Assembly: GCF_052102115.1 (NCBI RefSeq)
Contig: NZ_JBQDVP010000007.1
Location: 1,605 to 65,604, forward strand
Source of the DNA: Microbacterium sp.
Lineage (GTDB): Bacteria > Actinomycetota > Actinomycetes > Actinomycetales > Microbacteriaceae
Reading direction: 5' to 3'
Length of the DNA stretch: 64,000 nucleotides
The notes below the pieces were generated by a model. It was not told the DNA's origin. It did not search any database and was given only the letters and a program-made list of their open reading frames with translations. A program made the position numbers and the translations under genes. Below are positions 41,635 to 61,360 of this stretch, piece after piece (within the stretch, counting starts at the first letter, position 1; the number at the start of each line of letters is the position of its first letter).

Positions 41635-41642
41635 GGGTCACG

Positions 41643-43234: not shown

Positions 43235-43306
43235 TCCCGTAGCCAGTCGCTTGAAAGCCGTCGTTACAGTCATCCCAAACGCACGTCGAGCGCGAGAGGG
43301 AAACGC

Positions 43307-44254
43307 ATGGCGAAGACGAAGGTCGCGATCATCGGATCGGGGAACATCGGCACGGATCTCATGTTCAAGGTGATGCGCCTGAGCGAGGTCCTCGAGATGG
43401 GGGCGATGGTCGGCATCGATCCCGACTCGGACGGGCTGGCGCGGGCCGCACGGCTCGGCATCCCCACGACCGCTCAAGGTGTGGAAGGCCTCATCGGTCT
43501 GCCAGGGTTCGACGAGATCGAGATCGTCTTCGACGCCACCAGCGCAGGCGCGCACCGGCGCAACGCCGCGGCGCTCGAGCCGTACGGCAAGCTCATGGTG
43601 GACCTGACCCCGGCCGCCATCGGTCCGTACGTGGTGCCCGTGGCCAACCTCGACGAGCACCTGGATGCGACGAACGTGAACATGGTCACGTGCGGCGGCC
43701 AGGCGACGATCCCGATCGTGAGCGCGGTCAGCTCGGTCGTCCCGGTCCACTACGCCGAGATCGTCGCCTCGATCGCGTCGAAGTCGGCCGGACCGGGCAC
43801 GCGTGCGAACATCGACGAGTTCACCGAGACCACCTCGGCCGCGATCGAGCAGGTCGGCGGCGCTGCACGAGGCAAAGCCATCATCATCCTCAACCCGGCG
43901 GAGCCGCCGATGATCATGCGCGACACCGTGCTCCTCATCACCGACCGCCTGAGCGACCAGGAGCGTGGCGAGGTCGAAGCCGCGGTCGAGGCCCGGGTTG
44001 CGGCCGTGGCCGAGTACGTTCCGGGCTACCGCCTGAAGCAGGTCGTGCAGTTCAGCGACCAGGACTCCACAGTCGATCTGCTCGTGCCCGAAGCTCAGCG
44101 CACCGGCGCGTACACGAAGATCTCGGTCTTCCTCGAGGTCGAAGGCGCTGCCATGTATCTTCCGGCGTACGCCGGAAACCTCGACATCATGACCTCCGCC
44201 GCGGTGCGTACCGCCGAGCGGATGGTCTCCACGCGGAAGGCGGTCGTCGCATGA
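43307..44254 (+). CDS. mhpF: Acetaldehyde dehydrogenase (acylating)
   Basis: [34 protein letters not shown] and YAGNLDIMT motifs. Confidence 0.93.
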
Positions 44255-45255
44255 CGAAGATCTACCTGCAGGACGTCACCCTGCGCGACGGGATGCACGC
44301 GATCTCGCATCGCATCGAGCCTGCCAAGGCGGCTGAGATCGCCCGGGCTCTCGACGCGGCGGGCGTCGACGCGATCGAAGTCGCCCACGGCGACGGGCTG
44401 GCCGGATCCAGCCTGACGTACGGTGCCGGCTCGAACACCAACTGGGAGTGGATCGAGGCGGTCGCGGCCGCCGTCGAGAAGGCGGTCCTCACCACGTTGC
44501 TCCTTCCTGGCATCGGCACGATCTCCGACCTCCGCCGCGCGTACGACCTCGGGATCCGGTCGGTGCGGGTCGCCACGCACTGCACCGAAGCGGATGTCTC
44601 GCAGCAACACATCGAGACCGCCAAGTCGTGGGGCATGGACGTCTCGGGCTTTCTCATGATGTCGCACCTGAACGATCCGGCCGGCCTGGCGGCACAGGCC
44701 AAGCTGATGGAGTCCTACGGCGCGGACTGCGTCTACGTCACCGACTCGGCGGGCCGGCTCACCATGGACGGCGTGCGCGAGCGCGTCCGTGCCTACCGGG
44801 ACGTGCTGGACCCGAAGACCCAGATCGGGATCCATGCCCACCAGAACCTGTCGCTCGCGGTGGCGAACTCCGTGATCGCTGTCGAAGCCGGCGCGACCCG
44901 GGTGGACGCCTCGCTCGCCGGTCACGGCGCCGGCGCGGGCAACACGCCGATCGAGCCGTTCGTCGCCGTCGCGAAGCTGACGGGGTGGGATGTCGCGGCC
45001 GACGTCTTCGCACTGCAGGACGCGGCGGACGACCTCGTGCGCCCGCTGCACGACCGTCCGGTGCAGGTCGACCGCGAGACCCTCACGCTCGGCTACGCCG
45101 GCGTGTACTCGAGCTTCCTGCGTCACGCCGAGCGCGTCGGCGCGCAGTACGGCCTCGACGCGCGCGATCTGCTCGTGACCGTCGGCGAGCGGAAGCTCAT
45201 CGGCGGGCAGGAGGACATGATCGAAGACATCGCGCTGGACGCCTCCCGCGCCTGA
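44251..45255 (+). CDS. mhpE: 4-hydroxy-2-oxovalerate aldolase
   Basis: [31 protein letters not shown] and GGQEDMI motifs; ATGA-coupled to mhpF. Confidence 0.93.
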
Positions 45256-45281
45256 CCTTCGGCGCCGAGCGCCTCCTCGGA

Positions 45282-45926
45282 TCAGTCGGTGAGATACCGG
45301 TAGATCCGGGGAAGGAGCTCGTCGGCCCGCTCGGCCCACCAGTCGATCTCGTCCTGCGGCAGCGGCCGGGGGGTTCCGGCGGCCAGCGCATCGAGCGCGA
45401 GGCGCGCGCTGCGTTCGAGCACCCACATCCGTGCGACCGCCTGTGCCGCATCCGTTCCCACGGTGACCGCCCCATTGCCGCGGAGGATGATCGCGCCAGA
45501 AGCGCCCGCGGCCTCGGCCAGCGCGTCTGCCGTGGCGCGGTCGCGCACCAGGCGCGAGCTCTCATGGATGTGCACGCCGTGCAGCATCGCGCCGTGGCCG
45601 CCGAGGACGGGCAGTGCGATGCCCAGGGCGCTGAATGCTGCGACCGCACGTGGCTGTGCGCGCACGATCGATCCGACCTCGGGCCGCGCGGCGGCCAGCG
45701 CAAGGTGCATCCATCCCTCCAGCGGCACGCCCGCGGGCAGCTCGTCGCTCGCGACGTCCACCCTGACCGGCGGGGCTTCGCCGGCCCGGCCGAGGGGCAC
45801 CGGTGGAGTGATCAGCAGGGAGCGTTCCCCCGCGCGGACGGACACGTGTCCGAATGCGTCGCTCAAGCCGGCCGCGGCCACGGCCGAGGCGGCCGTGCGC
45901 AGCTGTGTGGTCAGATCGTCGTTCAT
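45282..45926 (-). CDS. Class II aldolase/adducin-family protein
   Basis: FGHVSVR, E.WMH, ILRGNG motifs; some His ligands appear replaced (AQP, GNG). Confidence 0.7.
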   Translation of the reverse strand: MNDDLTTQLRTAASAVAAAGLSDAFGHVSVRAGERSLLITPPVPLGRAGEAPPVRVDVASDELPAGVPLEGWMHLALAAARPEVGSIVRAQPRAVAAFSALGIALPVLGGHGAMLHGVHIHESSRLVRDRATADALAEAAGASGAIILRGNGAVTVGTDAAQAVARMWVLERSARLALDALAAGTPRPLPQDEIDWWAERADELLPRIYRYLTD

Positions 45927-45983
45927 ACGCCTCCATCGTCCGGGCTAGGGTAACCGGAAACGCCGGAACCGCCGAGACGGATG

Positions 45984-46742
45984 TCAATCAGCGGAACCGA
46001 GTTGCGGAAGGCGTCGCACCTCGTCGCTGAGGGCCGTGGCCATGCCGCGCACCATCGGGATCGAACGGTCGACGTCGAGTCGCTCGCTCCAGCCCGAGAC
46101 CGAGATCGCGGCGACCGGGCTGCTTCGCCCGCTGCCGATGATCGGTGCCGCCACGCACGAGATTCCCGGCCCGGACTCCTCGATCTCGGTCGCGTAGCCC
46201 TTGCCGTGGATCTCGGCGAGGTCCTGCCGCAGCCGGGCTGCATCCGTGATCGTGTTGGGCCCGATCTTCCAGAGACCGCGCGCCTCCACCTGGTCGAGCA
46301 CCTCGGGCGGAGAGAAGGCGAGCAGGGCCTTGCCGACACCGGTGGCGAATGCCGGCAGCCGGCCTCCCACCCGGGACGGAAGACGCGGCGAGGTGGACGA
46401 GTGCAGGATCTCGATGTACACCACGGTCGTCTCCTCGAGCACCGCGAGGTGCACCGTGTTGCCGGTCGCGCGCCGCAGCTCCGCCATTCGGGGCAGCGCG
46501 AGCAGCCGCAGGCTCCGCGGCCGGGCGGCTTGCTGTCCGAGCTCGAAGATGCGGATGCCGAGCGAGAGCGACGAGCCGTGGCGTTCGAGCCAGCCGTAGT
46601 CGACGAGTTCGTTGGTGATGCGGGATGCCGTCGATTTGGCGAGCCCGGTGAGGCGCGAGATCTCGCCGAGGGTGATGGCGGGCGTGCCGTCGCTGAAGCA
46701 GTCGAGCACCATGCTCACGCGGCCGATCATCGAGTCCGGCAT
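45984..46742 (-). CDS. IclR family regulator
   Basis: ITLGEISRLTGLAKSTASR HTH; ATGVGKALLA and ISCVAAPI motifs. Start could be GTG 46790. Confidence 0.9.
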   Translation of the reverse strand: MPDSMIGRVSMVLDCFSDGTPAITLGEISRLTGLAKSTASRITNELVDYGWLERHGSSLSLGIRIFELGQQAARPRSLRLLALPRMAELRRATGNTVHLAVLEETTVVYIEILHSSTSPRLPSRVGGRLPAFATGVGKALLAFSPPEVLDQVEARGLWKIGPNTITDAARLRQDLAEIHGKGYATEIEESGPGISCVAAPIIGSGRSSPVAAISVSGWSERLDVDRSIPMVRGMATALSDEVRRLPQLGSAD

Positions 46743-46770
46743 GTCCTTCGAAGGGGTTATGGCGCCGGCG

Positions 46771-46785
46771 TTCCATTCAGTGGAA
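46771..46785. promoter_or_regulatory. Putative IclR operator TTCCATTCAGTGGAA
   Basis: Lies between the divergent iclR and mhpD-like genes; matches 43220-43234. Confidence 0.65.
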
Positions 46786-46857
46786 TCCACGTTGCCAGTG
46801 TCGTTCGTCGGGCGCCTAATAGTCAAACCAGCAAGTCCGAAAGACGACGAGGTCACA

Positions 46858-47649
46858 TTGTCCAACCAGCCGATTAACGCACTCGTGACGGCGCTGTCCG
46901 GCGCCTACACCACAGGCGCGCCGATCGAGCCGCTGAGCGCCACGACGCCCGGCCTCACGGTCGACGACGCCTACGCGATCCAGCTGGCTCAGGTCGCCGC
47001 CTGGCAGGCGGAGGGCCGCCGGATCCGCGGGCACAAGGTGGGTCTGACCGCACTCGCGATGCAGCGCCAGCTCGGTGTGGATCAGCCCGACTACGGGCAC
47101 CTGTTCGACGACATGTTCTTCCTCGACTCGGCGCCGATCCCGGCAGGCCGGTTCATCGCCCCGCGCGTCGAGCCCGAGTTCGCATTCGTGCTCTCGCGCC
47201 CCCTGGCCGGGCCGGGCATCACGATCGCCGACGCCATCAGGGCGGTCGACTGCGTGCTCGGGTCGATCGAGATCATCGACTCGCGCATCGCCGACTGGAA
47301 GATCGGCCTGGTCGACACGATCGCCGACAACGCCTCCAGCGGCGGCGTGGTGCTCGGTAGCCGCCCGATGCGGCTCGATGAGCTCAACCTCGTGACCGCC
47401 GGCTGCACGCTCACCAAGAACGGCGTCGTCGTCGGAACCGGAGCGGGAGGCGCCGTCCTCGGCTCGCCGCTGAACGCTCTGGTCTGGCTCGCGAATCGGC
47501 TCGGCGACCTCGGCACGCAGCTCGACGAAGGCGCCGTCGTCCTGCCCGGTTCGATCTGCGCCGCCGTCCCGGTGGCGGCCGGCGATTCGGTCACCGCGGA
47601 CTTCGGCCCGCTCGGCACCGTCACCGCACGATTCACGGAGGAGGGCTAG
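46858..47649 (+). CDS. mhpD: 2-keto-4-pentenoate hydratase
   Basis: DAYAIQ, GHKVGLT, PRVEPE, EIIDSRI and ADNASSG motifs; TTG start after GAGG. Confidence 0.85.
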   Translation: MSNQPINALVTALSGAYTTGAPIEPLSATTPGLTVDDAYAIQLAQVAAWQAEGRRIRGHKVGLTALAMQRQLGVDQPDYGHLFDDMFFLDSAPIPAGRFIAPRVEPEFAFVLSRPLAGPGITIADAIRAVDCVLGSIEIIDSRIADWKIGLVDTIADNASSGGVVLGSRPMRLDELNLVTAGCTLTKNGVVVGTGAGGAVLGSPLNALVWLANRLGDLGTQLDEGAVVLPGSICAAVPVAAGDSVTADFGPLGTVTARFTEEG

Positions 47650-47652
47650 ACC

Positions 47653-48438
47653 GTGGCTTTCGATCAGATCGTCGACCGTCTGCTGGCAGCCGAGACCGAC
47701 CGCACCGACGTCGTCTCTTTCGCGGAGGAGTTCCCGCACTTCACCCCCGAGGACGCCTACCGCGCGCAGCACGCGCTCATCGAGCGCAAGGTCGCCGGCG
47801 GCGAGCGGATCATCGGCGTCAAGCTCGGTCTCACCTCGCGCGCGAAGCAGCAGCGCATGGGGATTTCGTCTCCGCTGACCGCCGTGGTCACCGACGCGAT
47901 GCACCTCGACCCCGGTGTGCCGATCCCGTACGACAGGCTCATCCACCCGCGCGTCGAGCCCGAGATCGTGTTCGTCCTCGGCTCCGACCTCACCGGGCCG
48001 GGAGTGACTCCCGAGACCGCGCTTCGTGCCGTGGCATCGGTGCACGCCGGGCTCGAGGTCATCGACAGCCGCTACCGCGACTTCAAGTTCTCGCTCGCCG
48101 ACGTGATCGCAGACAACGCGTCGAGCAGCTACTTCGCGGTCGGCGGCACCGCAGTGGGTGTGGCGGGGCTCGATCTGGCGAACGAAGCCTGCGTGCTCCG
48201 TGTCAACGGGCAGGTCGTGGACTCCGCTACGGGTGCCGCCGTGCAGGGGCATCCCGCAGCTGCTCTTTCGCTCGCCGCCAACGCGCTCGGCGCGCGGGGC
48301 ATTTCGATTCCTGCGGGATCGATCGTGCTCACCGGAGGCCTCACGGATGCCGTCCCGATCGCACCGGGTGACAGCGTCACCGTGGAGTTCACGACGCTCG
48401 GCAGCGTCACCGTGAGCGTTCACGGAGGTGACGCATGA
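47653..48438 (+). CDS. 4-oxalocrotonate decarboxylase (DmpH/XylI-like)
   Basis: GVKLGLTSRAKQQRMG, HPRVEPE, EVIDSRY.DFKF and GAAVQGHPA motifs. Confidence 0.8.
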   Translation: MAFDQIVDRLLAAETDRTDVVSFAEEFPHFTPEDAYRAQHALIERKVAGGERIIGVKLGLTSRAKQQRMGISSPLTAVVTDAMHLDPGVPIPYDRLIHPRVEPEIVFVLGSDLTGPGVTPETALRAVASVHAGLEVIDSRYRDFKFSLADVIADNASSSYFAVGGTAVGVAGLDLANEACVLRVNGQVVDSATGAAVQGHPAAALSLAANALGARGISIPAGSIVLTGGLTDAVPIAPGDSVTVEFTTLGSVTVSVHGGDA

Positions 48439-49250
48439 GCACGGTGTCGATCACGACGGTTCCGGATGCCGCGAAGAAGAGGTTCTTCGACTCGCGACCG
48501 GTTCAAGGCATCACGGGCGTCGTCGTCCTCATCCTGGTGATGGAGATCCTCTCGCGTACCGGAGTGATCCCCACGACCGTGCTCCCTCCCGTCTCGGAGG
48601 TCCTCGCGCAGATCCCGGTCCTTCTCGTAGACCCCGCGTTCCTCGTCGACATCGGTTCCACGATGCAGGCGTGGGCGATCGGTCTGGCCATCGCGGTGCT
48701 GGTCGGGGTGCCCGCCGGATTGCTCCTGGGGTCGTTCCGGCTCCTCTACGAGGGCTCCCGCGGCGTGATCGAGATGCTTCGCCCGATTCCTTCGGTCGCA
48801 CTCATTCCTCTTGCGGTCCTCGTCCTCGGGCTGAGCACCGAGATGAAGGTGGCGCTGGTCGTCTACGCCTCGATCTGGCCGATCCTGTTCAACACGCTGT
48901 ACGGCGTGCGTGACATCGAACCGGTGACCAAAGAGACGGCACGCACGTTCCGCACCTCCCCCGGTGAGCTGATCGGCCGCGTCCTGCTCCCGGCGGCGGC
49001 GCCCTTCGCGTTCACCGGCGTGCGCATCTCGGCTTCGATCGCGCTCATCGTGACCATCAGCGCGGAGTTGCTCGCAGGCACGCCGACGGGTATCGGCTCG
49101 TTCATCATGCGCATCTCGGCCGCGGGCGGTGACACCGCCGTCGTCCTGGCAGCCACGATCATCGCGGGCGTGATCGGAGTGCTGGTCAACGTGGTGCTCC
49201 AGTTCATCGAACGGCGGACGTTCCGCTGGCGGGAGGCATCCAACTCATGA
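48435..49250 (+). CDS. NitT/TauT-type ABC permease
   Basis: LRPIPSVALIP and IWPILFNT motifs, EAA-like loop. Confidence 0.88.
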   Translation: MSTVSITTVPDAAKKRFFDSRPVQGITGVVVLILVMEILSRTGVIPTTVLPPVSEVLAQIPVLLVDPAFLVDIGSTMQAWAIGLAIAVLVGVPAGLLLGSFRLLYEGSRGVIEMLRPIPSVALIPLAVLVLGLSTEMKVALVVYASIWPILFNTLYGVRDIEPVTKETARTFRTSPGELIGRVLLPAAAPFAFTGVRISASIALIVTISAELLAGTPTGIGSFIMRISAAGGDTAVVLAATIIAGVIGVLVNVVLQFIERRTFRWREASNS

Positions 49251-50127
49251 CGATCATCGATGGGCAGAACAGCCCCGCCACGATGCGCGATGACTCGACG
49301 GCCGAGAAGGCTCGCGATCGCGCCGCACGCAGGGCCGAACGTCGCGCCGGCGCGAAGTCGCTCTCGCTGAGCCTCGGTGTGCTCCTGGCACTTCTCGTAC
49401 TCTGGCAGATCGTCGCCACCGTCTGGCCGTCGACGTACTGGCCGCCGCCGCTGAAGATCCTGCAGCGCATGGCCGAGCTGTGGCTTCCGAGCCTGGAACA
49501 GCCCGTGCCCCCGGGCCTCACGTCGGACGTGATCCCCAGCCTGTTGCGCATGGGTGCGGGCTTCGGGCTCGCCGTGGTGTTCGGGATCGTCCTGGGCATG
49601 GCACTCGGACTCTCTCGACGATTCGAGGGATACACCGACTGGATCCTGCAGTTCTTCCGCGCGATCCCGCCGCCCACGCTCTTTCCCGTCTTCCTGCTGC
49701 TGTTCGGAGTGAGTGACACCATGCGCGTCATGCTCATCGCCTTCGGCACGGTGTGGCCGATCCTTCTCAACACGATCGAGGGCGTGCGGTCCATCCCGCC
49801 GCTGACCTTCGAGTCCTCGTCGGTGTTCCGCATCCGATGGATGGATCGTCTTTTCGGCATCATCCTGCCGGCGGCCGCTCCCAAGATCCTCGCGGGCGTT
49901 CGCACCAGTCTCGGACTCGCGATCATCCTCATGGTGATCTCGGAGATGATGGCGACGACCAACGGCATCGGCTTCCAGCTCATCCAAGCCCAGCGGACGT
50001 TCCTCACGCTCGACATGTGGGCGGCGATCGCGCTGCTGGGCCTCATCGGTTACGTCCTGAACCTCATTCTTACGTACGTCGAGCGCCGCATCCTCACGTG
50101 GCAGCGTCTCGGTGGAAAGGAGACCTC

Positions 50128-50131
<4 letters not shown>
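49247..50131 (+). CDS. NitT/TauT-type ABC permease
   Basis: [15 protein letters not shown] and MVISEM motifs. Confidence 0.88.
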
Positions 50132-50961
<830 letters not shown>

Positions 50962-50970
50962 GGCGCAGGC

Positions 50971-51765
50971 ATGGATCTCGGCCTGCACGGCGCGCGTGTG
51001 GTCGTCACCGGCTCCTCCAGCGGGATCGGTTGGCAGACCGTTCGCGCGTTCATCGAGGAGGGTGCCGACGTCATCGGCGTCGACCGCACTCTGCCTCGCG
51101 ATGCCTCCGAGCTGGGCGCCGACGCCGAGTTCGCCGCGTTAGTGGTGGATCTCGTCGTGGATGAGGCGCCTGCGGCGGTTGCGGCGGCGGTGGCGGAGCG
51201 ATGGGGCGAGTTCGACGTCCTCGTCAACTGCGCGGGGGTCGCCCCCACGCGCGCGTCCGCCGTGGGCGTGGACGAGGCCGGGTGGGCGCACACTCTCGCG
51301 GCCAATCTGCTGGCCCCGGTGCGTCTCGTATCGGCCCTCGCGCCGATGCTCGCCGACGACATCGGTGTGGTCGTGAACATCGCATCCACGTCCGCCAGAG
51401 CACCCGAGCCGGCGATGGTGGACTATGCGGCGTCGAAGGCCGCGCTGGTCGCGTACACGAATGCCATCGCACAGGAACTCGGGCCTGGCGGCATCCGCGC
51501 AGTCGTGGTCAGTCCCGGCCCCACCCGCACCGAGCTGTGGGACGCCCCCGGCGGGTTCGTCGACGCGATCGCGAACGGCTACGGCATGTCACGCGAGGCA
51601 GCCGTGGATCACCACATCCGAAACATCCGTCGCATCCCGCTCGGGCGTCCCGGTGACGCGCGAGAGATCGCCGATTCCATCGTCTTCCTGGCCTCGCGAC
51701 GCTCGCGATTCACCACCGGCAGCGCGCTCGCCGTCCATGGGGGAATGGCGACGCATCCGGCGTGA
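50971..51765 (+). CDS. Short-chain dehydrogenase/reductase
   Basis: TGSSSGIG, LVNCAG and YAASK motifs. Confidence 0.85.
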   Translation: MDLGLHGARVVVTGSSSGIGWQTVRAFIEEGADVIGVDRTLPRDASELGADAEFAALVVDLVVDEAPAAVAAAVAERWGEFDVLVNCAGVAPTRASAVGVDEAGWAHTLAANLLAPVRLVSALAPMLADDIGVVVNIASTSARAPEPAMVDYAASKAALVAYTNAIAQELGPGGIRAVVVSPGPTRTELWDAPGGFVDAIANGYGMSREAAVDHHIRNIRRIPLGRPGDAREIADSIVFLASRRSRFTTGSALAVHGGMATHPA

Positions 51766-51831
51766 GCGTCCACAGACACCACCTCACCACCCGAACTCCG
51801 TCATCGTGACGGCACAGCAAGAGGAGAATCA

Positions 51832-52830
51832 ATGAAAGGCACCACAATCCGGTCACGCTTCGCGATCCTGGGCGCCGTCGCGGCGCTCGCGCTCACGTTG
51901 AGCGCCTGCGGATCGTCGACCGAACCCGCCGCCACGACCGAGCCGAGCGCCGGTGGTGGCGCCCCCGAGGTGACCGAGCTCACCGTGGGCATCGTCCCCG
52001 TCGTCGATCACGCGGGGATCTTCCAGGCCGTCAACGAGGGTTACTTCGAAGAAGAAGGCCTCACCGTCACAGTCCAGCCCGCGGCGAGCGGCGGAGCCCT
52101 CGGGCCTGCGCTGCTCGCGGGCGACCTCCAGGCGTCCTTCGCGACGTGGCCGTCGTGGTTCCTCGCGAACGAGAACGCCGCGCCGCTGCGCTTCGTGGGC
52201 CTCGGCGTCTCGGGTACCGAAGGAACGGCGGGAATCTACTCCGCTCCGGACTCCGACATCACCGAGCCCGCCGACCTCGAAGGCAAGACCATCGCCGTCA
52301 ACAGCCTGAAGAACACGGGCGAGCTGACGATCCGTGCGGTGCTGGACGCCGAGGGCGTCGATACGACGACGGTCACGTTCACCGAGCTCCCCTTCCCCGA
52401 CATGATCGGCGCGGTCACGCAGGGCAACGTCGATGCGATCTGGCTCGTCGAGCCGTTCGCGACAGGCGGCGACGATGCCGGTCTGGTGAAGGTCGCGCCC
52501 AGTTACACCGGCCCAACCGCCGACATCCCCGTTTCTGGAGTCGCCATGCTCGCGTCGTTCGTCGAGCAGAACCCGAACACGGCTGCGGCCTTCGCGCGGG
52601 CGCTGGCCAAGGGCAACGCCGACATCGCGGCCGACCCCGAACTGGCGCGGGAGATCCTCCTGGCCGCACCGTTCAACCAGAAGCCCGAGGTCGTGGAGGC
52701 GATGAACCTTCCCGCGTGGGTCGAGGGCTATCCGACGGCCGAAGGGCTCGAGATCTGGAACGAGCTGATGGTCGAATACGATCTGCTTCCCGCAGCCGTC
52801 GACCTCTCGGGCGTCGTCTTCCAGCCCTGA
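51832..52830 (+). CDS. ABC substrate-binding lipoprotein (NMT1/SsuA-like)
   Basis: Lipobox LSAC; DLEGKTIAV and VDAIWLVEPF motifs. Confidence 0.85.
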   Translation: MKGTTIRSRFAILGAVAALALTLSACGSSTEPAATTEPSAGGGAPEVTELTVGIVPVVDHAGIFQAVNEGYFEEEGLTVTVQPAASGGALGPALLAGDLQASFATWPSWFLANENAAPLRFVGLGVSGTEGTAGIYSAPDSDITEPADLEGKTIAVNSLKNTGELTIRAVLDAEGVDTTTVTFTELPFPDMIGAVTQGNVDAIWLVEPFATGGDDAGLVKVAPSYTGPTADIPVSGVAMLASFVEQNPNTAAAFARALAKGNADIAADPELAREILLAAPFNQKPEVVEAMNLPAWVEGYPTAEGLEIWNELMVEYDLLPAAVDLSGVVFQP

Positions 52831-52837
52831 CAACGAC

Positions 52838-52878
52838 GTGTGTCCGGGGCGGCACCGCGCCGCCCCGGACACACTTTT
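52838..52878 (+). terminator. Intrinsic terminator-like hairpin between the SBP and ALDH genes
   Basis: GTGTGTCCGGGGCGGC / GCCGCCCCGGACACAC followed by TTTT. Confidence 0.7.
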
Positions 52879-52915
52879 CCGCACGATAGAGTCCGCACGA
52901 TAGAGAAGGAATCCC

Positions 52916-54349
52916 ATGACAGAGCGTTATGGCCACATCATCGATGGCCACGAGGTCGAGTCGACACTCGGCCACCAGTTCCAGAGCATCGATCCCTATG
53001 ACCAGAAGCCGTGGGCCGAAGTGGCATTCGGCGGCGCTCCCGATGTCGACCGCGCGGTGGCCGCAGCCCGGCACGCGTTCGACGAGGGTCCCTGGCCGCG
53101 CATGACGCACGAAGAGCGACGCTCGCTGATCCACCGGTTCGCGGATCTCATCATCGAGAACGGCGCAGAGCTCGCCCTCGCCGACACGCGCGACATGGGC
53201 AAGCCCTACGCGCAGGCGCTCGGCAACGACGTGCCCCGGACGGCCGCCAACTTCCGCTTCTTCGCCGATCACGCCGCGCTCGCCACCGGTGACGTGTATC
53301 CGCGCGACGATCGCCACCACCTGTACTCCAGCTACGACCCGGCGGGCGTCGTCGCGGCGATCGCGCCGTGGAACTTCCCCATGATGCTCGAGAGCTGGAA
53401 GGTCGCCCCCGCCCTGGCGTGGGGCAACACCGTCGTGCTCAAGCCCGCCGAGGACTCCCCGGCGTCGGCCACGATCCTCGCGCGGCTCGCGCTCGAAGCC
53501 GGCATTCCGGCGGGCGTCTTCAACGTCGTGCATGGCTACGGCCCGGACTCCGCAGGTCAGGCCCTGACCGAGAGCCCCTTCATCGACCGCATCACCTTCA
53601 CGGGCGAGTCCAACACGGGGCGCGTCATCGCCGCTGCGGCGGCGAAGAACCTCGTGCCGGTCAGCCTCGAGCTCGGCGGTAAGGGCGCCAACATCGTGTT
53701 CGACGACGCCGACATCGACAACGCGGTGGAGTGGTCGATCAATGCCGCGTTCACCAACACCGGTCAGGTGTGTCTGGCGGGTTCGCGGCTGTACGTGCAG
53801 CGCGGCATCCTGCCCGAGTTCAAGCGGCGTTTCGTCGCCGCCGCCGAAGCGATGGTCGTGGGCGACCCCAAGGACGATTCCACCCAGATCGGTCCACTGT
53901 CGTCGGACGAGCACTACACCAAGGTGCGTCGCTACTTCGATAGCATCGAGCAGGCCGGCGGTTCGATCGACACCGGTCGGCTCGGCGACGGCTGGACCAT
54001 CACGCCCACGGTCATCTCGGGTCTGTCCGAAGAAGCCCCGCACCTTCGCGAAGAGATCTTCGGTCCCATCGTGTCGATGACCCCGTTCGACACCGTCGAC
54101 GAGGCGGTGCGGCTCGTGAACGCGTCGCCCTTCGGCCTGAACGCGATGATGTTCACCGAGAACCTGTCGACGGCCCACAAGGTCGCCGGCCGCCTCCGCG
54201 TCGGCACAGTGTGGGTGAACTGCTTCTTCATCCGCGACCTGCGCGCTCCGTTCGGCGGTGCGGGCGATTCGGGTGTCGGGCGAGAAGGCGGCAACTTCAG
54301 CCGCGAGTTCTTCACCGAGCCCAAGGCCGTCGTCATGCAGCTGAACTGA
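52916..54349 (+). CDS. 2-hydroxymuconic semialdehyde dehydrogenase-like aldehyde dehydrogenase
   Basis: RTAANFRFFAD, PWNFP, FTGES.TG, ELGGK, GQVCLAGSR and IRDLRAPFGG motifs. Confidence 0.82.
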   Translation: MTERYGHIIDGHEVESTLGHQFQSIDPYDQKPWAEVAFGGAPDVDRAVAAARHAFDEGPWPRMTHEERRSLIHRFADLIIENGAELALADTRDMGKPYAQALGNDVPRTAANFRFFADHAALATGDVYPRDDRHHLYSSYDPAGVVAAIAPWNFPMMLESWKVAPALAWGNTVVLKPAEDSPASATILARLALEAGIPAGVFNVVHGYGPDSAGQALTESPFIDRITFTGESNTGRVIAAAAAKNLVPVSLELGGKGANIVFDDADIDNAVEWSINAAFTNTGQVCLAGSRLYVQRGILPEFKRRFVAAAEAMVVGDPKDDSTQIGPLSSDEHYTKVRRYFDSIEQAGGSIDTGRLGDGWTITPTVISGLSEEAPHLREEIFGPIVSMTPFDTVDEAVRLVNASPFGLNAMMFTENLSTAHKVAGRLRVGTVWVNCFFIRDLRAPFGGAGDSGVGREGGNFSREFFTEPKAVVMQLN

Positions 54350-54377
54350 TCCACCCGACCTCGCAAGGAGAAACGAC

Positions 54378-54575
54378 ATGCCGCTCATCACCGTAAACAT
54401 CGCCGAGGGTCGTTCCGAGGCGGACATCCGCAAGCTCATGGCCGCGCTGCACACCGCGGCGCACGAGTCGATCGGCGCACCGGAGCCGAGCATCCGCGTG
54501 ATCGTGAACGAGGTCGCCACGGACCGGTGGCTGAGCGGCGGGCAGACGCTCGCCGAGAAGGCTGCCCGCAGCTGA
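54378..54575 (+). CDS. 4-oxalocrotonate tautomerase family protein
   Basis: 65 aa with catalytic Pro1 (MPLITV) and GRS motif. Confidence 0.85.
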   Translation: MPLITVNIAEGRSEADIRKLMAALHTAAHESIGAPEPSIRVIVNEVATDRWLSGGQTLAEKAARS

Positions 54576-54601
54576 CCAGACGCCTGCGCGGGCGGGCCGC
54601 C

Positions 54602-55564
54602 TCACACTTCGAGCGACGCCTCCAGGGGTGGGGTGGCCCACGAGTGGAACGTGGCCGGCACCGGGGTGCCCCACGCCGTGCCGCGACCGTCGGCCTCGGT
54701 GGTCCACGTCACCGGCTCCCAGTCCGGCTGGAAGATGTGGATGCCGTCGGTGAAGATCTCGACGCGGTTGCCGCCTGGCTCGATGACGTACACGAAGAAG
54801 CCCTGCGTGCGCGAGTGCTTCGCCGGGCCGAACTCGACCGGAGTGCCCAGCTGGAGGAACATGTCCGCTGCGCGGATCACGTCCATGTGACTCTCGACCG
54901 CGTAGGCGAGGTGGTGCAGGCGTCCCTCTGTGGGCGAGGGCTCCCTTGTCAGCGCGAGGTCGTGCGCCTTCGTCATGACACTCAGCCACGCGCCGACCTC
55001 GTCGCCGCCGGCCGGAGTCAGCCGTTCGCGCAGCTTGAAGCCGAGCGTCTCTTGCTGAAACGCGCTCGCCGCTGCCACATCGGGCACCAGCACGTTGATG
55101 TGGTCGATGTGCGCGGCCGCCGCCCCGTGCGGAATGAACCGTTGTGCCTGGTTCGGCAGGTAGGGCTCCTCGCCGGGCGGGGCCACGTACTTCTCGGTCT
55201 CGAAGTAGACCTCCTGCACGTGGCCGCCGATGCCGGCGAACCTGTAGGCGGCGCCGTGGCCGAGATCGCCGTCGTGCCATTCGCCCTCGATGCCGCGCGC
55301 CTCCAGAGCGTCCACGGGGCGCTGGAGCGCCTGCGGACTCGTCGTGCGCCATGCCATGTGGCCCAGGCCCGGGTGCGTGGTCGCGGTCAGCCGCAGGGAC
55401 GTGAGAACGTCGTCGTTCCAGGCACGCAGGTACACGGCATCCTTCGTCTCACCGACGGGGAACAGTCCGTAGGTGTCGGTGAAGAATCGTGCGCTCGCCT
55501 CGAGATCCGGCGTCAGCAACTCGACGTGGCCGAGCTGGGCCACGTCGTAGATGGGCTCGGACAT
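54602..55564 (-). CDS. Catechol 2,3-dioxygenase (VOC type I)
   Basis: LGHVEL, IDHINV, AHDLAL, LHHLAY, GPAKH and EPGGNRVEIF motifs. Confidence 0.88.
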   Translation of the reverse strand: MSEPIYDVAQLGHVELLTPDLEASARFFTDTYGLFPVGETKDAVYLRAWNDDVLTSLRLTATTHPGLGHMAWRTTSPQALQRPVDALEARGIEGEWHDGDLGHGAAYRFAGIGGHVQEVYFETEKYVAPPGEEPYLPNQAQRFIPHGAAAAHIDHINVLVPDVAAASAFQQETLGFKLRERLTPAGGDEVGAWLSVMTKAHDLALTREPSPTEGRLHHLAYAVESHMDVIRAADMFLQLGTPVEFGPAKHSRTQGFFVYVIEPGGNRVEIFTDGIHIFQPDWEPVTWTTEADGRGTAWGTPVPATFHSWATPPLEASLEV

Positions 55565-55565
55565 G

Positions 55566-56507
55566 TCAGACGCGTGTCTGCGCCGCTTCGGTCAGCGCCT
55601 GAACGGCCGCGGCATCCGCGTCGTTGTCGGCGGTGAGGATCTGACGCTGAGTCGACGGCTTCTGCGAGCTGCCGCCCCACATGTCGATCGCACCGAACAT
55701 CGTCGGATCGAAGGTGCGGGGGATCCAGGCGTCGTCGTCGTGAATCAGCCGCACGTTCCACGAGTACTCGTACGTGAAGCCCTCGGGACCCTTGAAGTAG
55801 AGGAAGACGGCGCCCGACTGCGGGTGGCGGCCGGGCCCCTGCTCGATCTCGACGTCGTGCTCCTTGAGGAAGTTCCAGTTGCGGAAGATCGCGTCGATCT
55901 CGTCGACCTGGAAGTTCATGTGGCAGAGGCCCGGCTCATCGCCCTGGAAGACCGCCAGAGTGTGGTGCACCGGGTTGAAGCGCATGAGCGCTGCGTTGTT
56001 CTGCACCCAGTCCGACACCTTGATGTTGAAGTTTTCGGTCCAGAACTCCGCCGCCTTGTAGATGTCTTTCGCGTCGACGCACAAGTGCCCGAACTCGGTG
56101 ATACCGCTCGATGCGCGCGTCAGCTCCAGGAACGACGGGTCGTGCATCTGCCCGATCACGAGGTCGAACTTGTTGCCCCAGGGGTCATCGAATGAGATGA
56201 AGTCCGTCACGCGGCGGCTGCGCGCTTCTTCGTCGGTGCCGCGATGCACGCGGATGCCGATGGATTCGAGGTGTTTGGCGGCATTGTGCAGCGCCTTGTC
56301 GTCGCGCAGGACGAGGCCGCTCGAGAGCACTCCGCTCTCGCCCTCGACGAACGCGAGGCAGTGCTGACGCTTGTCGGCGCGCAGGTAGTGGACACCGTCG
56401 TCGGCGCCCTGATACTTCATTCCGACGATGTCGCGGGCGAAGCCGACGGCGGTATCGACGTCCTTCGCGCCGCTTCGGACATAGCCGATGTCAACGAGTT
56501 CGATCAT
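55566..56507 (-). CDS. BphC-like VOC extradiol dioxygenase
   Basis: FGHL, HHTLA, CHMNFQV, GPGRH and FTYEYSW ligand pattern. Confidence 0.78.
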   Translation of the reverse strand: MIELVDIGYVRSGAKDVDTAVGFARDIVGMKYQGADDGVHYLRADKRQHCLAFVEGESGVLSSGLVLRDDKALHNAAKHLESIGIRVHRGTDEEARSRRVTDFISFDDPWGNKFDLVIGQMHDPSFLELTRASSGITEFGHLCVDAKDIYKAAEFWTENFNIKVSDWVQNNAALMRFNPVHHTLAVFQGDEPGLCHMNFQVDEIDAIFRNWNFLKEHDVEIEQGPGRHPQSGAVFLYFKGPEGFTYEYSWNVRLIHDDDAWIPRTFDPTMFGAIDMWGGSSQKPSTQRQILTADNDADAAAVQALTEAAQTRV

Positions 56508-56546
56508 TTCAATTGCTCCTTCGTCGGAGGTGGCGTACTTTCAGTA

Positions 56547-56564
56547 TAGGTATACATATACATA
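56547..56564. promoter_or_regulatory. Second putative PadR operator TAGGTAT-ACAT-ATACATA
   Basis: Same 7-4-7 geometry and half-sites as 39334-39351; lies between the divergent dioxygenase and padR genes. Confidence 0.65.
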
Positions 56565-56592
56565 TGTCACAAGTGATACTAGGGTGGCACTC

Positions 56593-57162
56593 GTGTCCCT
56601 GCGCTTCGCGATTCTCGGCATCCTCGAGGCCACGCCCATGACGGGGTACGAGCTGGGTCAGCGGTTCGCCTCGAGTGCACGATGGGTGTGGTCGGCTCCC
56701 CGGAGCCAGATCTATCCGCTGCTGGCCAAGCTCGAAGCCGACGGGCTCATCGCGGGGGAGCACGCCATCGTCGATGGGCGTGCCCAGCGCCGCTATGGCA
56801 TCACCGGCGACGGATGCCGCGAACTGCGCCGGTGGGTGAGCGAAGCGCACGACCTGCCGCCGGTGCGCGACCCGATGCTGCTGCACGCACTGTTCCTTGA
56901 CATCGTCGGCGTCTCCGAAGCCGAGGAGGTGCTCCGAGGCGAATGGGCGGCCGAGCGCGCGCGGATCGTCGAGTGGGAGGCACACCGCGATGCGCTCGCA
57001 GCGGGGAAGACGCCGGTGATCCGGGCCCGGCTGCGCAATCGCGATCCGAGCGAGCACGAGCGGATCACCCGCATCAAGGCCGCGGCCTTCAACGGTCTGG
57101 TCGAGACCGGTCGTGCGCGGCTGCGGTGGCTAGAGTCGATGATCGAAGCGGTCCGCGACTGA
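56593..57162 (+). CDS. PadR family regulator
   Basis: LRFAILGIL...TGYEL...RSQIYPLL.KLE...YGITGDG. Confidence 0.88.
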   Translation: MSLRFAILGILEATPMTGYELGQRFASSARWVWSAPRSQIYPLLAKLEADGLIAGEHAIVDGRAQRRYGITGDGCRELRRWVSEAHDLPPVRDPMLLHALFLDIVGVSEAEEVLRGEWAAERARIVEWEAHRDALAAGKTPVIRARLRNRDPSEHERITRIKAAAFNGLVETGRARLRWLESMIEAVRD

Positions 57163-57218
57163 CGTCCCCGGCGCCGAGCCAGCCGTGCCGGATCGGGCCG
57201 AAGCCTTGTTGCGCCGGG

Positions 57219-57597
57219 TCAGGCAGGGGCGCGCCAGAGGCTGCGGCGCTCGATGAACTCCGCCGTCATGGTCGAGGCGTGCTCTTCGGGCGCCTGCGCG
57301 TCGAGCATGCGGATCGCCATCGTGACGCCGAGCTCGCCCAGCCGTTCGAGCGGTGGTCGGATCGTGGTGAGCGCCGGCATCATGAAGTCCGCACCGAACA
57401 CATCGTCGTTGCCGCAGACGCTCAGCTCGTCCGGAACCGAGACGCCGAGCCGCTGGAGTTCGAGGATCAGCCCGATGGCGCGGAGGTCGTTGAACGCGAC
57501 CACCAGCGTCGCACGCGAGGCGAGCACCGGCGCGGCCGCCTCCCGCCCGCCGTCCAGCCCAAACGGGAAGGCTCCGAGCGTCTCGATCCGCAGCCCG
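57219..57597 (-). pseudogene. LacI-family regulator, C-terminal fragment
   Basis: VVAFNDLRAIG, SVCGNDD and LTTIRPP motifs; no HTH; begins immediately after the ritC stop. Confidence 0.8.
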
Positions 57598-58626
57598 TCA
57601 GGTAGTGAGTCCGCAGAGTCGCCGGATGATGTCGTCTCGGTCGTGCCACATCGGTACGGCCGGTGGACTGGCGGTGCCGACGGTGGTCTTGGCGAGAGCT
57701 CGACGTTTCATCTCGGTGTCGGCGTGGGCGTAGATGAGTGTGGTCTCGGGATCCGTGTGCCCGAGCCATTCGGTGATCAGCGCCAGGGGCATGCCCGCTT
57801 GGTAGAGGTGCATGGCACGGGAGTGGCGCAGCATGTGGGGGTGTACCTTCTCCGGGATCTCCGTGCAGCTCTCGCGGGCGGTGCTGGCATGATGGCGAAC
57901 GAATCGGCCGACGTTGTCGTCGGACATGCGTGTCTTGCGGTGACCGTGGATGGTGAAGAACAACGGCTGGTCAGCGGTGGGATCGTGGTGGAACACCTCG
58001 GTGTAGCGGCGATAGTGGGCAGCGGTCTCGCTGGTGATAGGTAGCCGCCGCGGTTTCGCACCCTTCCCGACCAGGTCGACGGTGAGTCGCCTGAGATCGA
58101 TATCGCCGACGGTCAGGGCGAGCATCTCAGCGTCGCGGGCCGCGACGTCATACATCAAGATCATGAAGAACTGGTCGCGAAGGCCGGTCTTCGTGGCGTG
58201 ATCGGGCGCGGCAAGCAGCGCCGTGACGGCGCCGGTCGTCAGATAGTGGACGGATGGGGTCGCTGTGGTCTTCAGCTGCGGGACGCCGTTGACGTCAGCC
58301 AGGTGGATGGCGAGGATCGGTTCGGCGGTAGCGGCGTAGCGGAAGAAGGACCGGATGCAGGCGAGCCGTTGGTTGTAGGTCGTCGCGGTCCACGAACGCG
58401 TTGCCCTCATGTGGTCGAGGAATTCGATGATGCAGGCCCGGTTAATGATGGAGAACGTCACGTGCTCGAGTGGGACCCCGCGGGTCTCCGCGACGTATCC
58501 CAGGAGCATATTCCAGGTGTGGCGGCACGCGGTGATCGTGTGCGGGCTGACTCCGCGTTGCCGAGGCATGAAAACGGTGAACCACTCGCGCAGGTGCCGG
58601 TAGAAGTCGTCGGTGGGATTGGTCAT
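57598..58626 (-). CDS. Tyrosine recombinase, third gene of the RIT trio (RitC-like)
   Basis: AAR.AE, GKG.K.R, HPHMLRHS and WLGH....TLIY catalytic residues are intact. Confidence 0.9.
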   Translation of the reverse strand: MTNPTDDFYRHLREWFTVFMPRQRGVSPHTITACRHTWNMLLGYVAETRGVPLEHVTFSIINRACIIEFLDHMRATRSWTATTYNQRLACIRSFFRYAATAEPILAIHLADVNGVPQLKTTATPSVHYLTTGAVTALLAAPDHATKTGLRDQFFMILMYDVAARDAEMLALTVGDIDLRRLTVDLVGKGAKPRRLPITSETAAHYRRYTEVFHHDPTADQPLFFTIHGHRKTRMSDDNVGRFVRHHASTARESCTEIPEKVHPHMLRHSRAMHLYQAGMPLALITEWLGHTDPETTLIYAHADTEMKRRALAKTTVGTASPPAVPMWHDRDDIIRRLCGLTT

Positions 58627-59561
58627 GATGTCACTTCCGGGATGATGCCCGCCGCGCTCGTCAGGCCGGTTGCGGCCAGGCGCTCGGGAAGCAGATGGAT
58701 GTAGTAGGCAGTGGTCGAGTAGGTGTTGTGACCCATGTAGGCCGACAGGTACGGCAGCCAGACATTGAGGTCGCGGCCCTCCTCGACCCATCGCGTCAGG
58801 GTGCGTGTGGCGTAGTTGTGGCGCAGCGTGTACGGCGTGGAACCGGGTGCGACGCCGCCCGCACGATCACGGCAGCGGTGATAGTGGGCCGTGATCCAGC
58901 GGCCCGGGTAGGGCTGTTCTGGGTGGTCCTCGAAGAAGAACTCCCGGCCGGGCCGGCGCAGATCGGCGAGCTCGTCAAACCGGGCCAACAGGTCGGCCAT
59001 GCCGGTGTCCACCGGGACACGGCGGTCCTTGTTCCGTTTCGACTGCTCGATCGTCACGATGGCGCCGCCGAGGTCGACGTTCCGGCGGCGGAGCAGTCGG
59101 GCTTCTTGGGGCCGCAGCCCGCAGCCCAGCATCAGTCGGAAGAGCACCGGGATCGTGTACTCACGGAATGGGCTGGTCCCGGAGGGGGTGACCAAGTCGG
59201 TAGCTCCGAAGAAGGCGGCCAGTTCGCTGTCACTGAAGATGTGGGGCAGGTTCCTGGTGGGCTGTCGGATCCACTGCGCGGGCAGCACGAATGCTTCCAC
59301 GCCGACCAGGTGCAGGTACCTGCCGAACTCGCGAATCGCGTGGCCCTTGTACGCAGGCCATTCAACCCTCGCGCCTTCTTGACACCAGGCGGTGACCAGT
59401 TCCCGGGTCAGGATCGGCTCGCCAGGCGGGTGTGCGACGCAATACCGGTCGAAGCTGAGCATCGGATACGCGAGTGTGCGGCGGGAGTAGCCGAGAGCTG
59501 TGCGCCACTGGAGCATCGCCTCGATGTGAGTGGCGAAGCCGCTGCTGAACGTGATGGTCAT
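58623..59561 (-). CDS. Tyrosine recombinase, second gene of the RIT trio (RitB-like)
   Basis: CGLRPQE, SK.NKDR, YTLRHNYA and LSAYMGH....TAYY motifs; ATGA overlaps on both sides. Confidence 0.9.
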   Translation of the reverse strand: MTITFSSGFATHIEAMLQWRTALGYSRRTLAYPMLSFDRYCVAHPPGEPILTRELVTAWCQEGARVEWPAYKGHAIREFGRYLHLVGVEAFVLPAQWIRQPTRNLPHIFSDSELAAFFGATDLVTPSGTSPFREYTIPVLFRLMLGCGLRPQEARLLRRRNVDLGGAIVTIEQSKRNKDRRVPVDTGMADLLARFDELADLRRPGREFFFEDHPEQPYPGRWITAHYHRCRDRAGGVAPGSTPYTLRHNYATRTLTRWVEEGRDLNVWLPYLSAYMGHNTYSTTAYYIHLLPERLAATGLTSAAGIIPEVTS

Positions 59562-60780
59562 CGCGGGGCGCCCTTCGCTAGGGCGAAGCTGTCGAGAGGG
59601 AGGGCGCAGTCACGGAGGAATTCGTCGGCCAGCGCGATGTAGCGTCGAGAGGAGTCAATGCTGGCGTGACCGAGCACCTGCGCCGTCAGCGCCAGCTCGG
59701 CTCCGGACTCGATCAGGCGGGTGCCCGTCGTGCGCCGCAGCGCGTGGGACGTCTTACCGTCATGTGCGCGGTGCGACACGCCTTGGCAAGCCACCGGCGC
59801 ATGATGAGAGCCCCCGTTGGCCCGGTCAGCTTCGTGAACGGCGCGTAGAGACGGACGAATACCTCGGGCGCATCGCTATCGGGTCTTCCGTGCAGGAGCC
59901 AGTCCGCGATCGCGTTGCCGGCGTCCGCCGACAGTGGCAGTGTCAACGGCGCCGAGGTCTTATTCTGCACCAGGCGGATCTCATCGTTGTGCCAGTCGAT
60001 CTGGTTGAGCCGGAGTGACACGATGTCGCAGCAGCGAAGCCCGGTCGACAGCGCCAACCGGACCATCGCGTAGTCCCTCTTCCCGCGGGGGGTTGCGGTC
60101 TCGATCGCGCTGACGAGCCGGTCAGCCTCCTCGGGGGTGAAGCAGGGTAGCGCACGCGTCCGTCTCGGCCCGACCCGCGCCAGCAGGGCATCGACCTTCA
60201 ATTCGGTCAGCCGCTGATGGTTCAGGAACTGGAGGAACCGCTTGATGGCCCACACCGTGTTTCCCATGCCCGATGCGTGACGCGGCCTCGCTTCGACGAG
60301 AAATGCTCGGACATCGTCGACAGAGACCGATTCGAGCGAACGGCCGACGCGGTCCAGATAACCCATGAATCCGCGGGCTTCACTGACCACATCGCGCACC
60401 GAGCCAGGCGCGAGTTCCTTCTGCACGTGCTGAGCGAAGCCGCTGAGAACCACCGTGGCAGACGCGCTCAGGCTCGATGCTGGCCTTCGTCGTTTCCATA
60501 CGACCGCGCCGGTCCGCTGGAACTCCAGCATCAGCCGGGCAATCTTCTCCAAGTTCGATCGCAGCCCAGCGTGGATCTCACCTCGGCGCACTCGATCATC
60601 CATTGCCGCGAGGAACTCCTCCACGGCCCGCTCGGTCAGCTGATCGATTCCTCGGCTGTGCGAGAACCGCATCACGGTCCAGCAGCAGCTCCGGTAGTAC
60701 CGGATCGAGCCGGGCGCCAGGCCGATGCGCGTGGCCTCTGCCAACACGCCCTCGGCAACCCAAGATGGTTCGTCATTCAC
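59558..60780 (-). pseudogene. Tyrosine recombinase, first gene of the RIT trio (RitA-like), frameshifted
   Basis: TGLRCCDI and QNKT are in one frame, while SHALRRT and VLGH....RRY are in another; shift near 59779-59790. Confidence 0.8.
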
Positions 60781-60956
60781 GACCCAACCTCCTGTCGGAC
60801 GGCGTCGCGGCCGCTCCAAAGACGGTCGCGACACGCACCACAATCCCGCGGAAAGGTGCCGACGACTACCCGTTCCGTCGGCTTCTGAGGCGCATGCGGA
60901 TTATTCCGAGCCAGACAGGTGGCTGCACCATGCCCCAGGAGCCCGTCAGGCAGTCG

Positions 60957-60985
60957 TCGGAATAATCCGAGAATCGGAACAATCG
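60957..60985 (-). repeat. Right terminal inverted repeat
   Basis: TCGGAATAATCCGAGAATCGGAACAATCG, exact complement of the left IR. Confidence 0.95.
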
Positions 60986-61014
60986 ACATTATGCCGAGGT
61001 CGGCATAACGTCGA
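60983..61014. repeat. Palindrome TCGAC-A-TTATGCCGA-GG-TCGGCATAA-C-GTCGA outside the right IR
   Basis: 14 of 15 arm positions are complementary; core motif resembles the IR motifs. Confidence 0.9.
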
Positions 61015-61360
61015 CCTGCTGTTCTTCCACGTCGAGCAGTTGAGGTACGTCGTGATCGAGCTTAAGGTCAGCAAGTTTGAGCCACGTGACGCCGGACAGA
61101 TCGGGTTCTATGTTGCGCTCGTCGACGACCGCCTCCGGATCACCGAGAAGCACCAGCCAACCATCGGGATCCTGCTCGTCGCCGACAAGAACGACACTGT
61201 CGTCCGTTACGCGCTCGCTGGCGCTGCCCAGCCGGTCGCGGTGAGCAGGTACGAGCTCACTCCGGAAACGCAGAAGGCGCTGCCGGATGAAGAGACGATC
61301 ACGCGGGCGTTCGAGGACGAGCTCGCGCTTGAGGCCTCTGCCGATGATGACGACGACTGA
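61010..61360 (+). pseudogene. YhcG/DUF1016 nuclease, C-terminal fragment
   Basis: VDLLFFH...YVVIELK...F.PRDAGQIGFY...PTIGILL...VRYAL; continues the 37564-37993 fragment. Confidence 0.88.

Follow-up and report, generated by a model that had tools for sequence, protein, structure and literature searches.

RIT elements are common in many bacterial phyla. To our knowledge, nobody has shown since their description in 2009 how they move, what it is that they recognize, or for what reason three recombinases are required. They consist of three adjacent genes for Xer-like tyrosine recombinases in the order A-B-C, with short overlaps (4 to 8 bp) and inverted repeats (IRs) of about 28 to 34 bp (Van Houdt 2009, 2012, PMC3414803). 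Their target specificity and mode of movement are listed as "not tested" in the table of a 2023 review, according to which no transposition has been reproduced (PMC10214605). In the RIT literature covered, Ricker 2013 apart, a palindrome has not been assigned any role.

The window, i.e., the whole 64-kb stretch of DNA that was analyzed, contains an element of about 23 kb that shares with RITs the A-B-C gene order and the terminal IRs, but differs from their usual size of 3.5 kb in carrying about 19.5 kb of aromatic meta-cleavage cargo, and also has a frameshifted ritA. The left IR, at the ritC-distal end (37999-38035, plus strand), contains the box TTGTTCCGA at 37999-38007 and, after an 8-nt gap, the box TTATTCCGA at 38016-38024; the right IR, at the ritA-proximal end (60946-60982, minus strand), has its boxes at 60974-60982 and 60957-60965. 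The two ends pair over 40 nt (37996-38035 with 60946-60985) at 88% identity, 22.9 kb apart, and have an exact 26-nt core, TTGTTCCGATTCTCGGATTATTCCGA, that was found at both element ends and nowhere else in the 3.2-Mb genome. Each end therefore reads box-8-box, and an inner inverted box follows 47 nt further in: TTATTCCGA on the right (60901-60909, plus strand), about 120 nt upstream of the ritA start, and its mirror on the left, the degenerate TCGGGATAA (38072-38080, minus strand), a sixth box that an earlier sequence-only reading of this DNA had not listed. An inner inverted box is present at +45 to +75 in most related ends, and the right one, whose conserved counterpart at +45 to +47 in ritA-proximal ends of related elements is TCGGAATAA, presumably serves as an accessory site or operator. 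The 40-nt IR with its exact core, together with a palindrome at one end (described below), fits the definition of RIT ends, and the 23-kb element can be classed as an ordinary RIT, set apart by an unusually large cargo and a broken ritA.

The cargo (38081-57597) lies between the IRs, within a split DUF1016 gene. Pfam scans of this region identified one LigB-type and two VOC-type extradiol dioxygenases, a C-C hydrolase, acetaldehyde and aldehyde dehydrogenases, FAA-family hydrolases, an ABC transporter, and three regulators, two of the PadR and one of the IclR family. Different cargo accompanies a common ritABC in the related elements of Microbacterium sp. Gd 4-13 (L007) and M. flavescens (L011). 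The edges of the cargo in the window are gene fragments, namely a piece of a PepX_C domain (38355-38975) and the C-terminal half of a LacI-type regulator adjoining ritC (57219-57527), which suggests cargo capture by rearrangement.

The three rit open reading frames are adjacent on the minus strand in the order ritA-ritB-ritC, and the Pfam Phage_integrase domain is present in all of them: ritC (57598-58626, 342 aa, E value of 1e-27), ritB (58623-59561, 312 aa, E value of 2e-16), and ritA (59558-60780). Their products are all Xer-like, that of ritC being XerC/XerD-like, with scores below the specific family cutoffs, and the trio is collinear with and 76 to 91% identical in nucleotide sequence to those of L007, L011, and L013 (Arthrobacter sp. 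ISL-30). HxxR and Tyr stretches are visible by eye in RitB, as LRHNYATR and a C-terminal Tyr stretch in its translation, and in RitC. The genes ritB and ritC overlap by 4 nt (58623-58626). Between 59781 and 59782, ritA has lost 4 nt that are present in L007; its open frame runs from 60780 and ends at 59713, and a shifted tail follows in which the stretch HALRRT...GH...RRY lies out of frame, down to an ATGA overlap with ritB. This overlap exists only in the frame lost by the deletion and is intact in L007 and L009, where RitA is 408 to 410 aa long. The catalytic R..HxxR..Y signature is consequently found in fewer than all three Rit proteins, RitA having lost it by the frameshift, which is also why the domain matches of RitA end halfway (only 3-100 of 172 in the Pfam integrase profile and 9-190 of 290 in the XerD profile). 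RitA has been described as having two N-terminal core-binding domains (Smyshlyaev 2021, PMC8138268); here, SAM_1 was matched at residues 140-210 above the cutoff and SAM_4 at 37-81 below it (20 bits versus 27). A sequencing error is an unlikely source of the 4-nt gap. The frameshift probably renders this copy immobile, and the window copy is probably a RIT by descent that is now inactive. The element is single-copy in its genome despite an unoccupied DUF1016 target on contig C91, and it is probably a fixed island now.

The sequence-only reading had reported five boxes of the form TTRTKCCGA at the right end of the element, and rereading the sequence directly placed all of them at the same positions. 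Besides the inner box at 60901-60909, they are the two boxes of the right IR, TCGGAATAA (60957-60965, minus strand) and the outer box TCGGAACAA (60974-60982, minus strand), followed by TTATGCCGA (60989-60997, plus strand) and TCGGCATAA (61000-61008, minus strand). The last two are the halves, nearer to and farther from the IR, respectively, of a 20-bp palindrome, TTATGCCGA-GG-TCGGCATAA (60989-61008), which we call P and which was delimited from the sequence and by comparison with related ends. The motif TTRTKCCGA has seven matches in the window against a mean of 0.66 in dinucleotide-preserving shuffles, and seven were reached in none of 100 shuffles; the two remaining matches (37999 and 38016, plus strand) make up the left IR. 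P itself occurs a single time in the 3.2-Mb genome. The outer IR box, a 6-nt spacer, and the inner half of P form TCGGAACAA-TCGACA-TTATGCCGA (60974-60997), an inverted box pair that had been described as a complete core-type junction. The box pair and its 6-bp spacer are as described, and this 9-6-9 geometry of two inverted arms is constant in the 27 related ends presented below; as a recombination site, it is a candidate. We consider the boxes to be probable recombinase-binding sites at the ritA-proximal end of a cargo-carrying RIT. A scan for sigma-70 promoters around the boxes gave no match, and a weak terminator-like match overlaps P.

The interrupted gene belongs to the DUF1016/YhcG family. 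Its left, N-side fragment (37616-37999, plus strand) matches the DUF1016_N profile at 93-137 and the YhcG_C profile at 1-62, ends with ...GDDFF-AD, and is already without its own 5' part; its right, C-side fragment (61010-61360, plus strand) starts with VDLLFFHVEQLRYVVIELK, begins VD-LLFFHVEQLRYVVIELK in translation, and matches YhcG_C at 61-149 (E value of 6e-27). On the Pfam YhcG_C profile, the two halves meet and overlap by 2 codons, and the junction reads ...FF-[A/V]D-LLFFH...ELK, so that the flanks together make one YhcG_C domain and P lies outside both halves, as had been claimed. The family motif of the YhcG PD-(D/E)xK nucleases is E-D-ExK (PMC1189080); the element is inserted at the Asp codon of this motif, and going by the motif, this Asp would be the catalytic one. 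The 5 nt adjoining the left IR, which we call F1, are GCCGA (Ala-Asp codons, 37994-37998, plus strand) and would be part of the 6-nt exchange region of an attL-like junction. Across 30 N-side ends, F1 varies but can always be read as an [ILVAC]-Asp codon pair. On the other side, the 6 nt from P to the rest of DUF1016 are CGTCGA (61009-61014, plus strand), which contain the 5-mer F3, GTCGA (Val-Asp), and constitute an attR-like junction.

That the palindrome might be a normal part of intact DUF1016 alleles, a possibility that the sequence-only reading had raised against itself, was not borne out by a search of four such alleles. P is missing from three alleles of relatives, L016 (TTCTAC-ATCGAC-CTTCTG), L017 (TTCATC-ATCGAC-CTGCTG), and L018 (GTC-GTCGAC-CTGCTC), and from the second, unoccupied DUF1016 gene that the genome of the window has on contig C91 (L082 1650-1720, TTCTTT-GTCGAC-CTCCTGTTCTTCCAC). 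With P in place, the DUF1016 frame would run into a TAA. Among 60 relatives, there was no orthologous empty site for this DUF1016 gene, the best matches being paralogues of 74 to 78% identity. Inspection of the DUF1016 target arms for a box-like sequence in register with the core found none, CTGTTCTTC being the only one and 4 nt out of register, which counts against the model presented below. Two further features of these genes were observed. Where the 5' part of the window gene is missing, a near-perfect palindrome, AATTGTCCAACGG-C-CCGTTGGACAATT (37586-37616), lies upstream of a divergent minus-strand open reading frame. A DUF1016 paralogue of the same genus (L015, G009:C11, about 1480-1500) is without about 40 codons spanning the RIT target (...VSERE/HVEQLRYVV..., the slash marking the gap), which may reflect an old imprecise loss or an unrelated deletion.

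To compare P across related elements, we collected about 40 loci by a RitA-based genome search and an exact scan of metagenomes for the IR pattern, most of them metagenome contigs, and oriented each IR from outside to inside before parsing the ends. The P-bearing ends (n = 27, 20 distinct flanks) come from Actinomycetota and Burkholderiales and read flank-6 nt-P-6 nt-IR, the spacing between P and IR being 6 nt in all 27. Twenty-five of them (18 flanks) adjoin the C side of DUF1016, xDLLF[FY][HN]; L013 and L072, the remaining two, are at non-DUF1016 sites, of which that of L013 resembles the DUF1016 site and that of L072 belongs to a second copy in the genome of Microbacterium sp. Gd 4-13 (G062). 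The N-side ends (n = 30, 23 flanks) read flank-IR, nearly all with a DUF1016 N-side (...DDFY-xD), and none of the 30 has P. P was accordingly present at every DUF1016 C-side junction examined in this RIT lineage, as a comparison of homologous ends, a check suggested by the sequence-only reading, made clear. Only one end of an element has P, and in all DUF1016 targets this is the end on the C-terminal side of the gene. The IR that adjoins it varies: it is the ritA-proximal one in L009, L011, L013, and the window and the ritC-distal one in L008 and L010, and the overall split is about 13 to 10-12. The sequence of P tracks the lineage of the element. Judged by these comparisons, P is a conserved part of the element.

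The association extends beyond this lineage. The pattern TTATKCCGA-nn-TCGGMATAA was found in 9 of 401 Actinomycetes genomes and its reversed control in none. At each of these sites in the 401 genomes, P is separated by 6 nt from the box-8-box array of one RIT lineage or another, whose boxes often match the halves of P exactly, and Rit homologues lie within 1.5 kb of these sites where the contigs allow; a solo P was not found in the 401 genomes. The layout box-8-box-6-P-6-flank also occurs in other RIT lineages with other targets. A BLAST search of the element end against plasmids gave only three weak matches, two of them informative: this grammar recurs on the Agrobacterium plasmids pAt12D1 and pAvCG412, where another gene is the target and annotated tyrosine recombinase genes lie alongside (pAt12D1 has three, and the PLSDB table gives two for pAvCG412). 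Since P is found at the ends of other RIT lineages and in other targets, it is a general part of RIT ends.

Of the two options offered by the sequence-only reading, a scar of an earlier RIT and an obligatory accessory site of the system, these comparisons support the second: P is constant at C-side junctions and, together with the adjoining IR box, makes up an intact second core-type site. From the same comparisons, we infer a course of events that includes a circle, the position of the crossover, the assignment of Rit proteins to boxes, and the carry-over of spacers. Excision would occur by tyrosine-recombinase exchange between the left-IR junction and the junction beyond P, giving a circle, or an equivalent folded form, with the joint IR-6 nt-P-6 nt-IR. 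This joint would be a long palindrome with two mirror-image, dif-like cores (box-6-box). Integration would follow when one core, whichever of the two, crosses over within its 6-nt spacer with the DUF1016 target C-NNCGA; the core used would be split into both junctions, and the unused core would be left intact beside P, as TCGGAACAA-TCGACA-TTATGCCGA in the window. The bases that vary in the spacers would be inherited from targets visited before, in the manner of coupling sequences. With a crossover possible in either core, ritABC could run in either direction, and P would nonetheless always end up on the same target side. Taken as a whole, this model, in which P belongs to the element, sits at the circle joint, and permits integration through either core at the catalytic Asp codon of DUF1016, is in our estimation probably correct.

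Two pairs of loci are informative in this regard. L064 (with L030) and L063 have C-side flanks that are 100% identical over 286 nt and represent one metagenomic locus in two states. From the flank inward, L064 reads G-TCGCA-G-CTATTCCGA-AC-TCGGAATAG-C-GTCGA up to IR_b, and L063 reads G-TCGAC-G-CTATTCCGA-GT-TCGGAATAG-C-TGCGA up to IR_a, i.e., the 32-nt module of spacer, P, and spacer is an exact reverse complement and has the opposite IR attached. The second pair is in G062, which has two copies of a 9.3-kb cargo RIT (contigs C9, C14, C16, C17, and C19, L066-L072), one in DUF1016 and one elsewhere. The halves of P are unequal in this element (TTATGCAGA and TTATTCCGA), and each keeps its own neighboring IR in both copies, the breakpoint being on opposite sides of P. 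Both pairs are as expected if the integrated forms are two linearizations of one circle, IR_b-6-P-6-IR_a. The non-DUF1016 copy is at a site that is only partly target-like, and the presence of two copies in one isolate is evidence for cargo RITs transposing as a unit. L008 and L042 were considered as a third two-state pair and dropped, since their flanks resemble each other close to the junction but not beyond it, with 34% ungapped identity over 306 nt.

The spacers themselves point in the same direction. F1, F2 (the corresponding 5-mer in the intact core), and F3 share one set of 5-mers (GTCGA, ATCGA, CTCGA, GCCGA, TGCGA, CTGGA, and ATTGA). These read as codon pairs for [Ile/Leu/Val/Ala/Cys]-Asp, and they include variants at synonymous third positions; this holds for F2 too, although F2 does not code for protein. 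Of 13 complete elements, 7 have identical F1 and F3, and in the other 6 the two are different, as they are in the window (GCCGA versus GTCGA). Such a mismatch would fit a heteroduplex-tolerant exchange with carry-over of the previous target.

Several loci do not follow from a crossover in either core alone. L009 and L032 have element ends identical over 300 nt and flanks that are 88% identical, and a different IR adjoins P in each, yet the center of P is CC in both, not flipped; an additional inversion between the two cores, or an inversion in situ, is needed for this pair. In L010 compared with L060/L061, the center dinucleotide of P disagrees with the orientation of the unequal halves, which makes this dinucleotide a weak marker, and P of L048 is flipped relative to that of L060/L061. 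The element can also invert relative to P, as recombination between two inverted cores would bring about. L027 has two different DUF1016 N-sides, one at each end, and the contig of L040 starts inside the half of P beside one IR, with P also present at the other IR. The two resemble the reciprocal outcomes that recombination between a pair of inverted copies would give. L040 was also considered as a circle joint and rejected in that role, with only 14 nt visible and the reciprocal recombination fitting equally well. Neither a circle joint nor an empty site left by excision was seen.

Among the alternatives to a double-stranded circle, a single-stranded form, in which IR-6-P-6-IR folds into one hairpin with a single core and is completed by replication, fits all the data just as well. 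As single-stranded DNA, P and its spacers form a stable fold (-12.1 to -13.9 kcal/mol, z of about -6), mismatched spacers would give a bubble in the exchange region, and the center of P flips independently of the halves in some lineages, as hairpin loops can. Exonuclease-protected RIT DNA without detectable circle junctions has also been reported, and hairpins were proposed (Nielsen 2017, PMC5737581). However, the halves of P are sometimes non-complementary (TTATGCAGA/TCGGAATAA and TTATTCCGA/TCGGCATAA), which indicates a constraint on each half-site rather than on pairing, and we regard this form as unlikely.

Another explanation makes P an element-borne architectural or regulatory accessory site outside the crossover and attributes the two orientations of ritABC to inversion in situ between the IRs. 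The inverted element beside an unflipped P in L009/L032 would be accounted for in this way, and both orientations are found surprisingly often at identical or near-identical loci (L037/L049 and L010/L027). A plain IR-by-IR inversion, however, cannot flip P and swap the spacers, as in L063 versus L064 and the G062 copies, and it leaves unexplained both the likeness of the spacers to a former target codon pair and the constant C-side position of P. We hold it to be distinctly unlikely.

The scar option, by which P would be what is left of an older RIT after reduction to its two outer boxes, the present element having integrated beside it later, draws on the fact that the IR boxes themselves are TTATGCCGA in L073, L079, L080, and L084, where P looks like outer boxes placed head to head, and such an origin of P may lie in deep evolutionary time. 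As an account of the present loci, we reject it as highly improbable: P is at 27 of 27 P-type ends with a fixed spacing and never alone in the 401 genomes searched, follows the lineage of the element in its sequence, and goes with the element rather than the flank in its orientation (L063/L064 and the G062 copies), besides being at non-DUF1016 sites (L013 and L072) and at the ends of other RIT lineages. Equally improbable is that P is native to the target, as a DUF1016 hairpin or terminator or a host site sought by the element, for which the terminator-like match and the constant target side could be cited but which is contradicted by the four intact alleles without P, by the stop codon that would enter the reading frame, and by the presence of P beside RIT ends in unrelated targets.

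The preferred reading, a circle joint with two usable cores, has partial counterparts in other site-specific systems. With Xer recombination at dif, and with the CTX phage and other IMEX that integrate there, it shares simple Xer-like recombinases and a core in which a 6-nt spacer separates two inverted arms; the inner arm bases, CATAA-N6-TTATG, resemble dif. The hairpin form would parallel the single-strand integration of CTX phage at dif, and also integron attC sites. Unlike dif systems, the RIT here encodes its own three recombinases and has two mirror-image cores around a palindrome and a protein-coding target. End junctions that can be unequal (6 of 13 elements here) and a retained spacer that looks like a former target recall Tn916, CTnDOT, Tn554, and SE elements, the carry-over here being proposed from comparisons. 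The circle of those elements, however, contains one junction site, and their ends are free of a palindrome. A 6-bp carry-over is described for Tn554 and SE elements (PMC10214605). GInt and SE elements likewise have several recombinase genes that move a cargo island site-specifically, but differ by description in having four conserved genes, including a non-recombinase gene, another host range, and another end structure.

Whether RITs as a class move via a two-fold symmetric joint, IR-6-P-6-IR, with a near-universal P, either core usable, and the spacers rewritten at each target, is in our view an even call. If they do, the orientation of insertion would be random with P always on the same side of the target, the unused spacer would be a readable fossil of the previous insertion site, and RITs would carry tens of kilobases and home to catalytic-motif codons in nuclease genes. 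The main value of the comparison is the evidence that it brings on RIT recombination. It yields an explicit proposal, cheap to test, of an attP-like joint, a 6-nt exchange region, and two interchangeable crossover sites, with a defined target in DUF1016, namely C-NNCGA where the Asp codon precedes LLF[FY]H. It also shows that RITs can carry large cargo, such as the 19.5-kb aromatic-degradation cluster and the 9.3-kb element, which matters for the spread of catabolic genes, and a self-contained, site-specific, cargo-tolerant system of this kind could find practical use.

Individual ends showed some further variation. In L026 (2290-2331), a 17-bp tandem duplication within the IR (TTCCCGGATTATTCCGA twice) has created an extra box. 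The minus-strand end of L028/L035 belongs to a complete element that has DUF1016 on one side and, on the other, a non-DUF1016 flank without P that reads ...GCTAAAGAGAAC-ATCGA up to the IR. In L081 (1521-2760), an inserted IS1595-like element separates P of a RIT from the IR, and the end of this IS, AGGGCTATCCATC, also adjoins P in a second genome (L075 100-148); since the same IS end is beside P in two genomes, this IS may target the RIT core.
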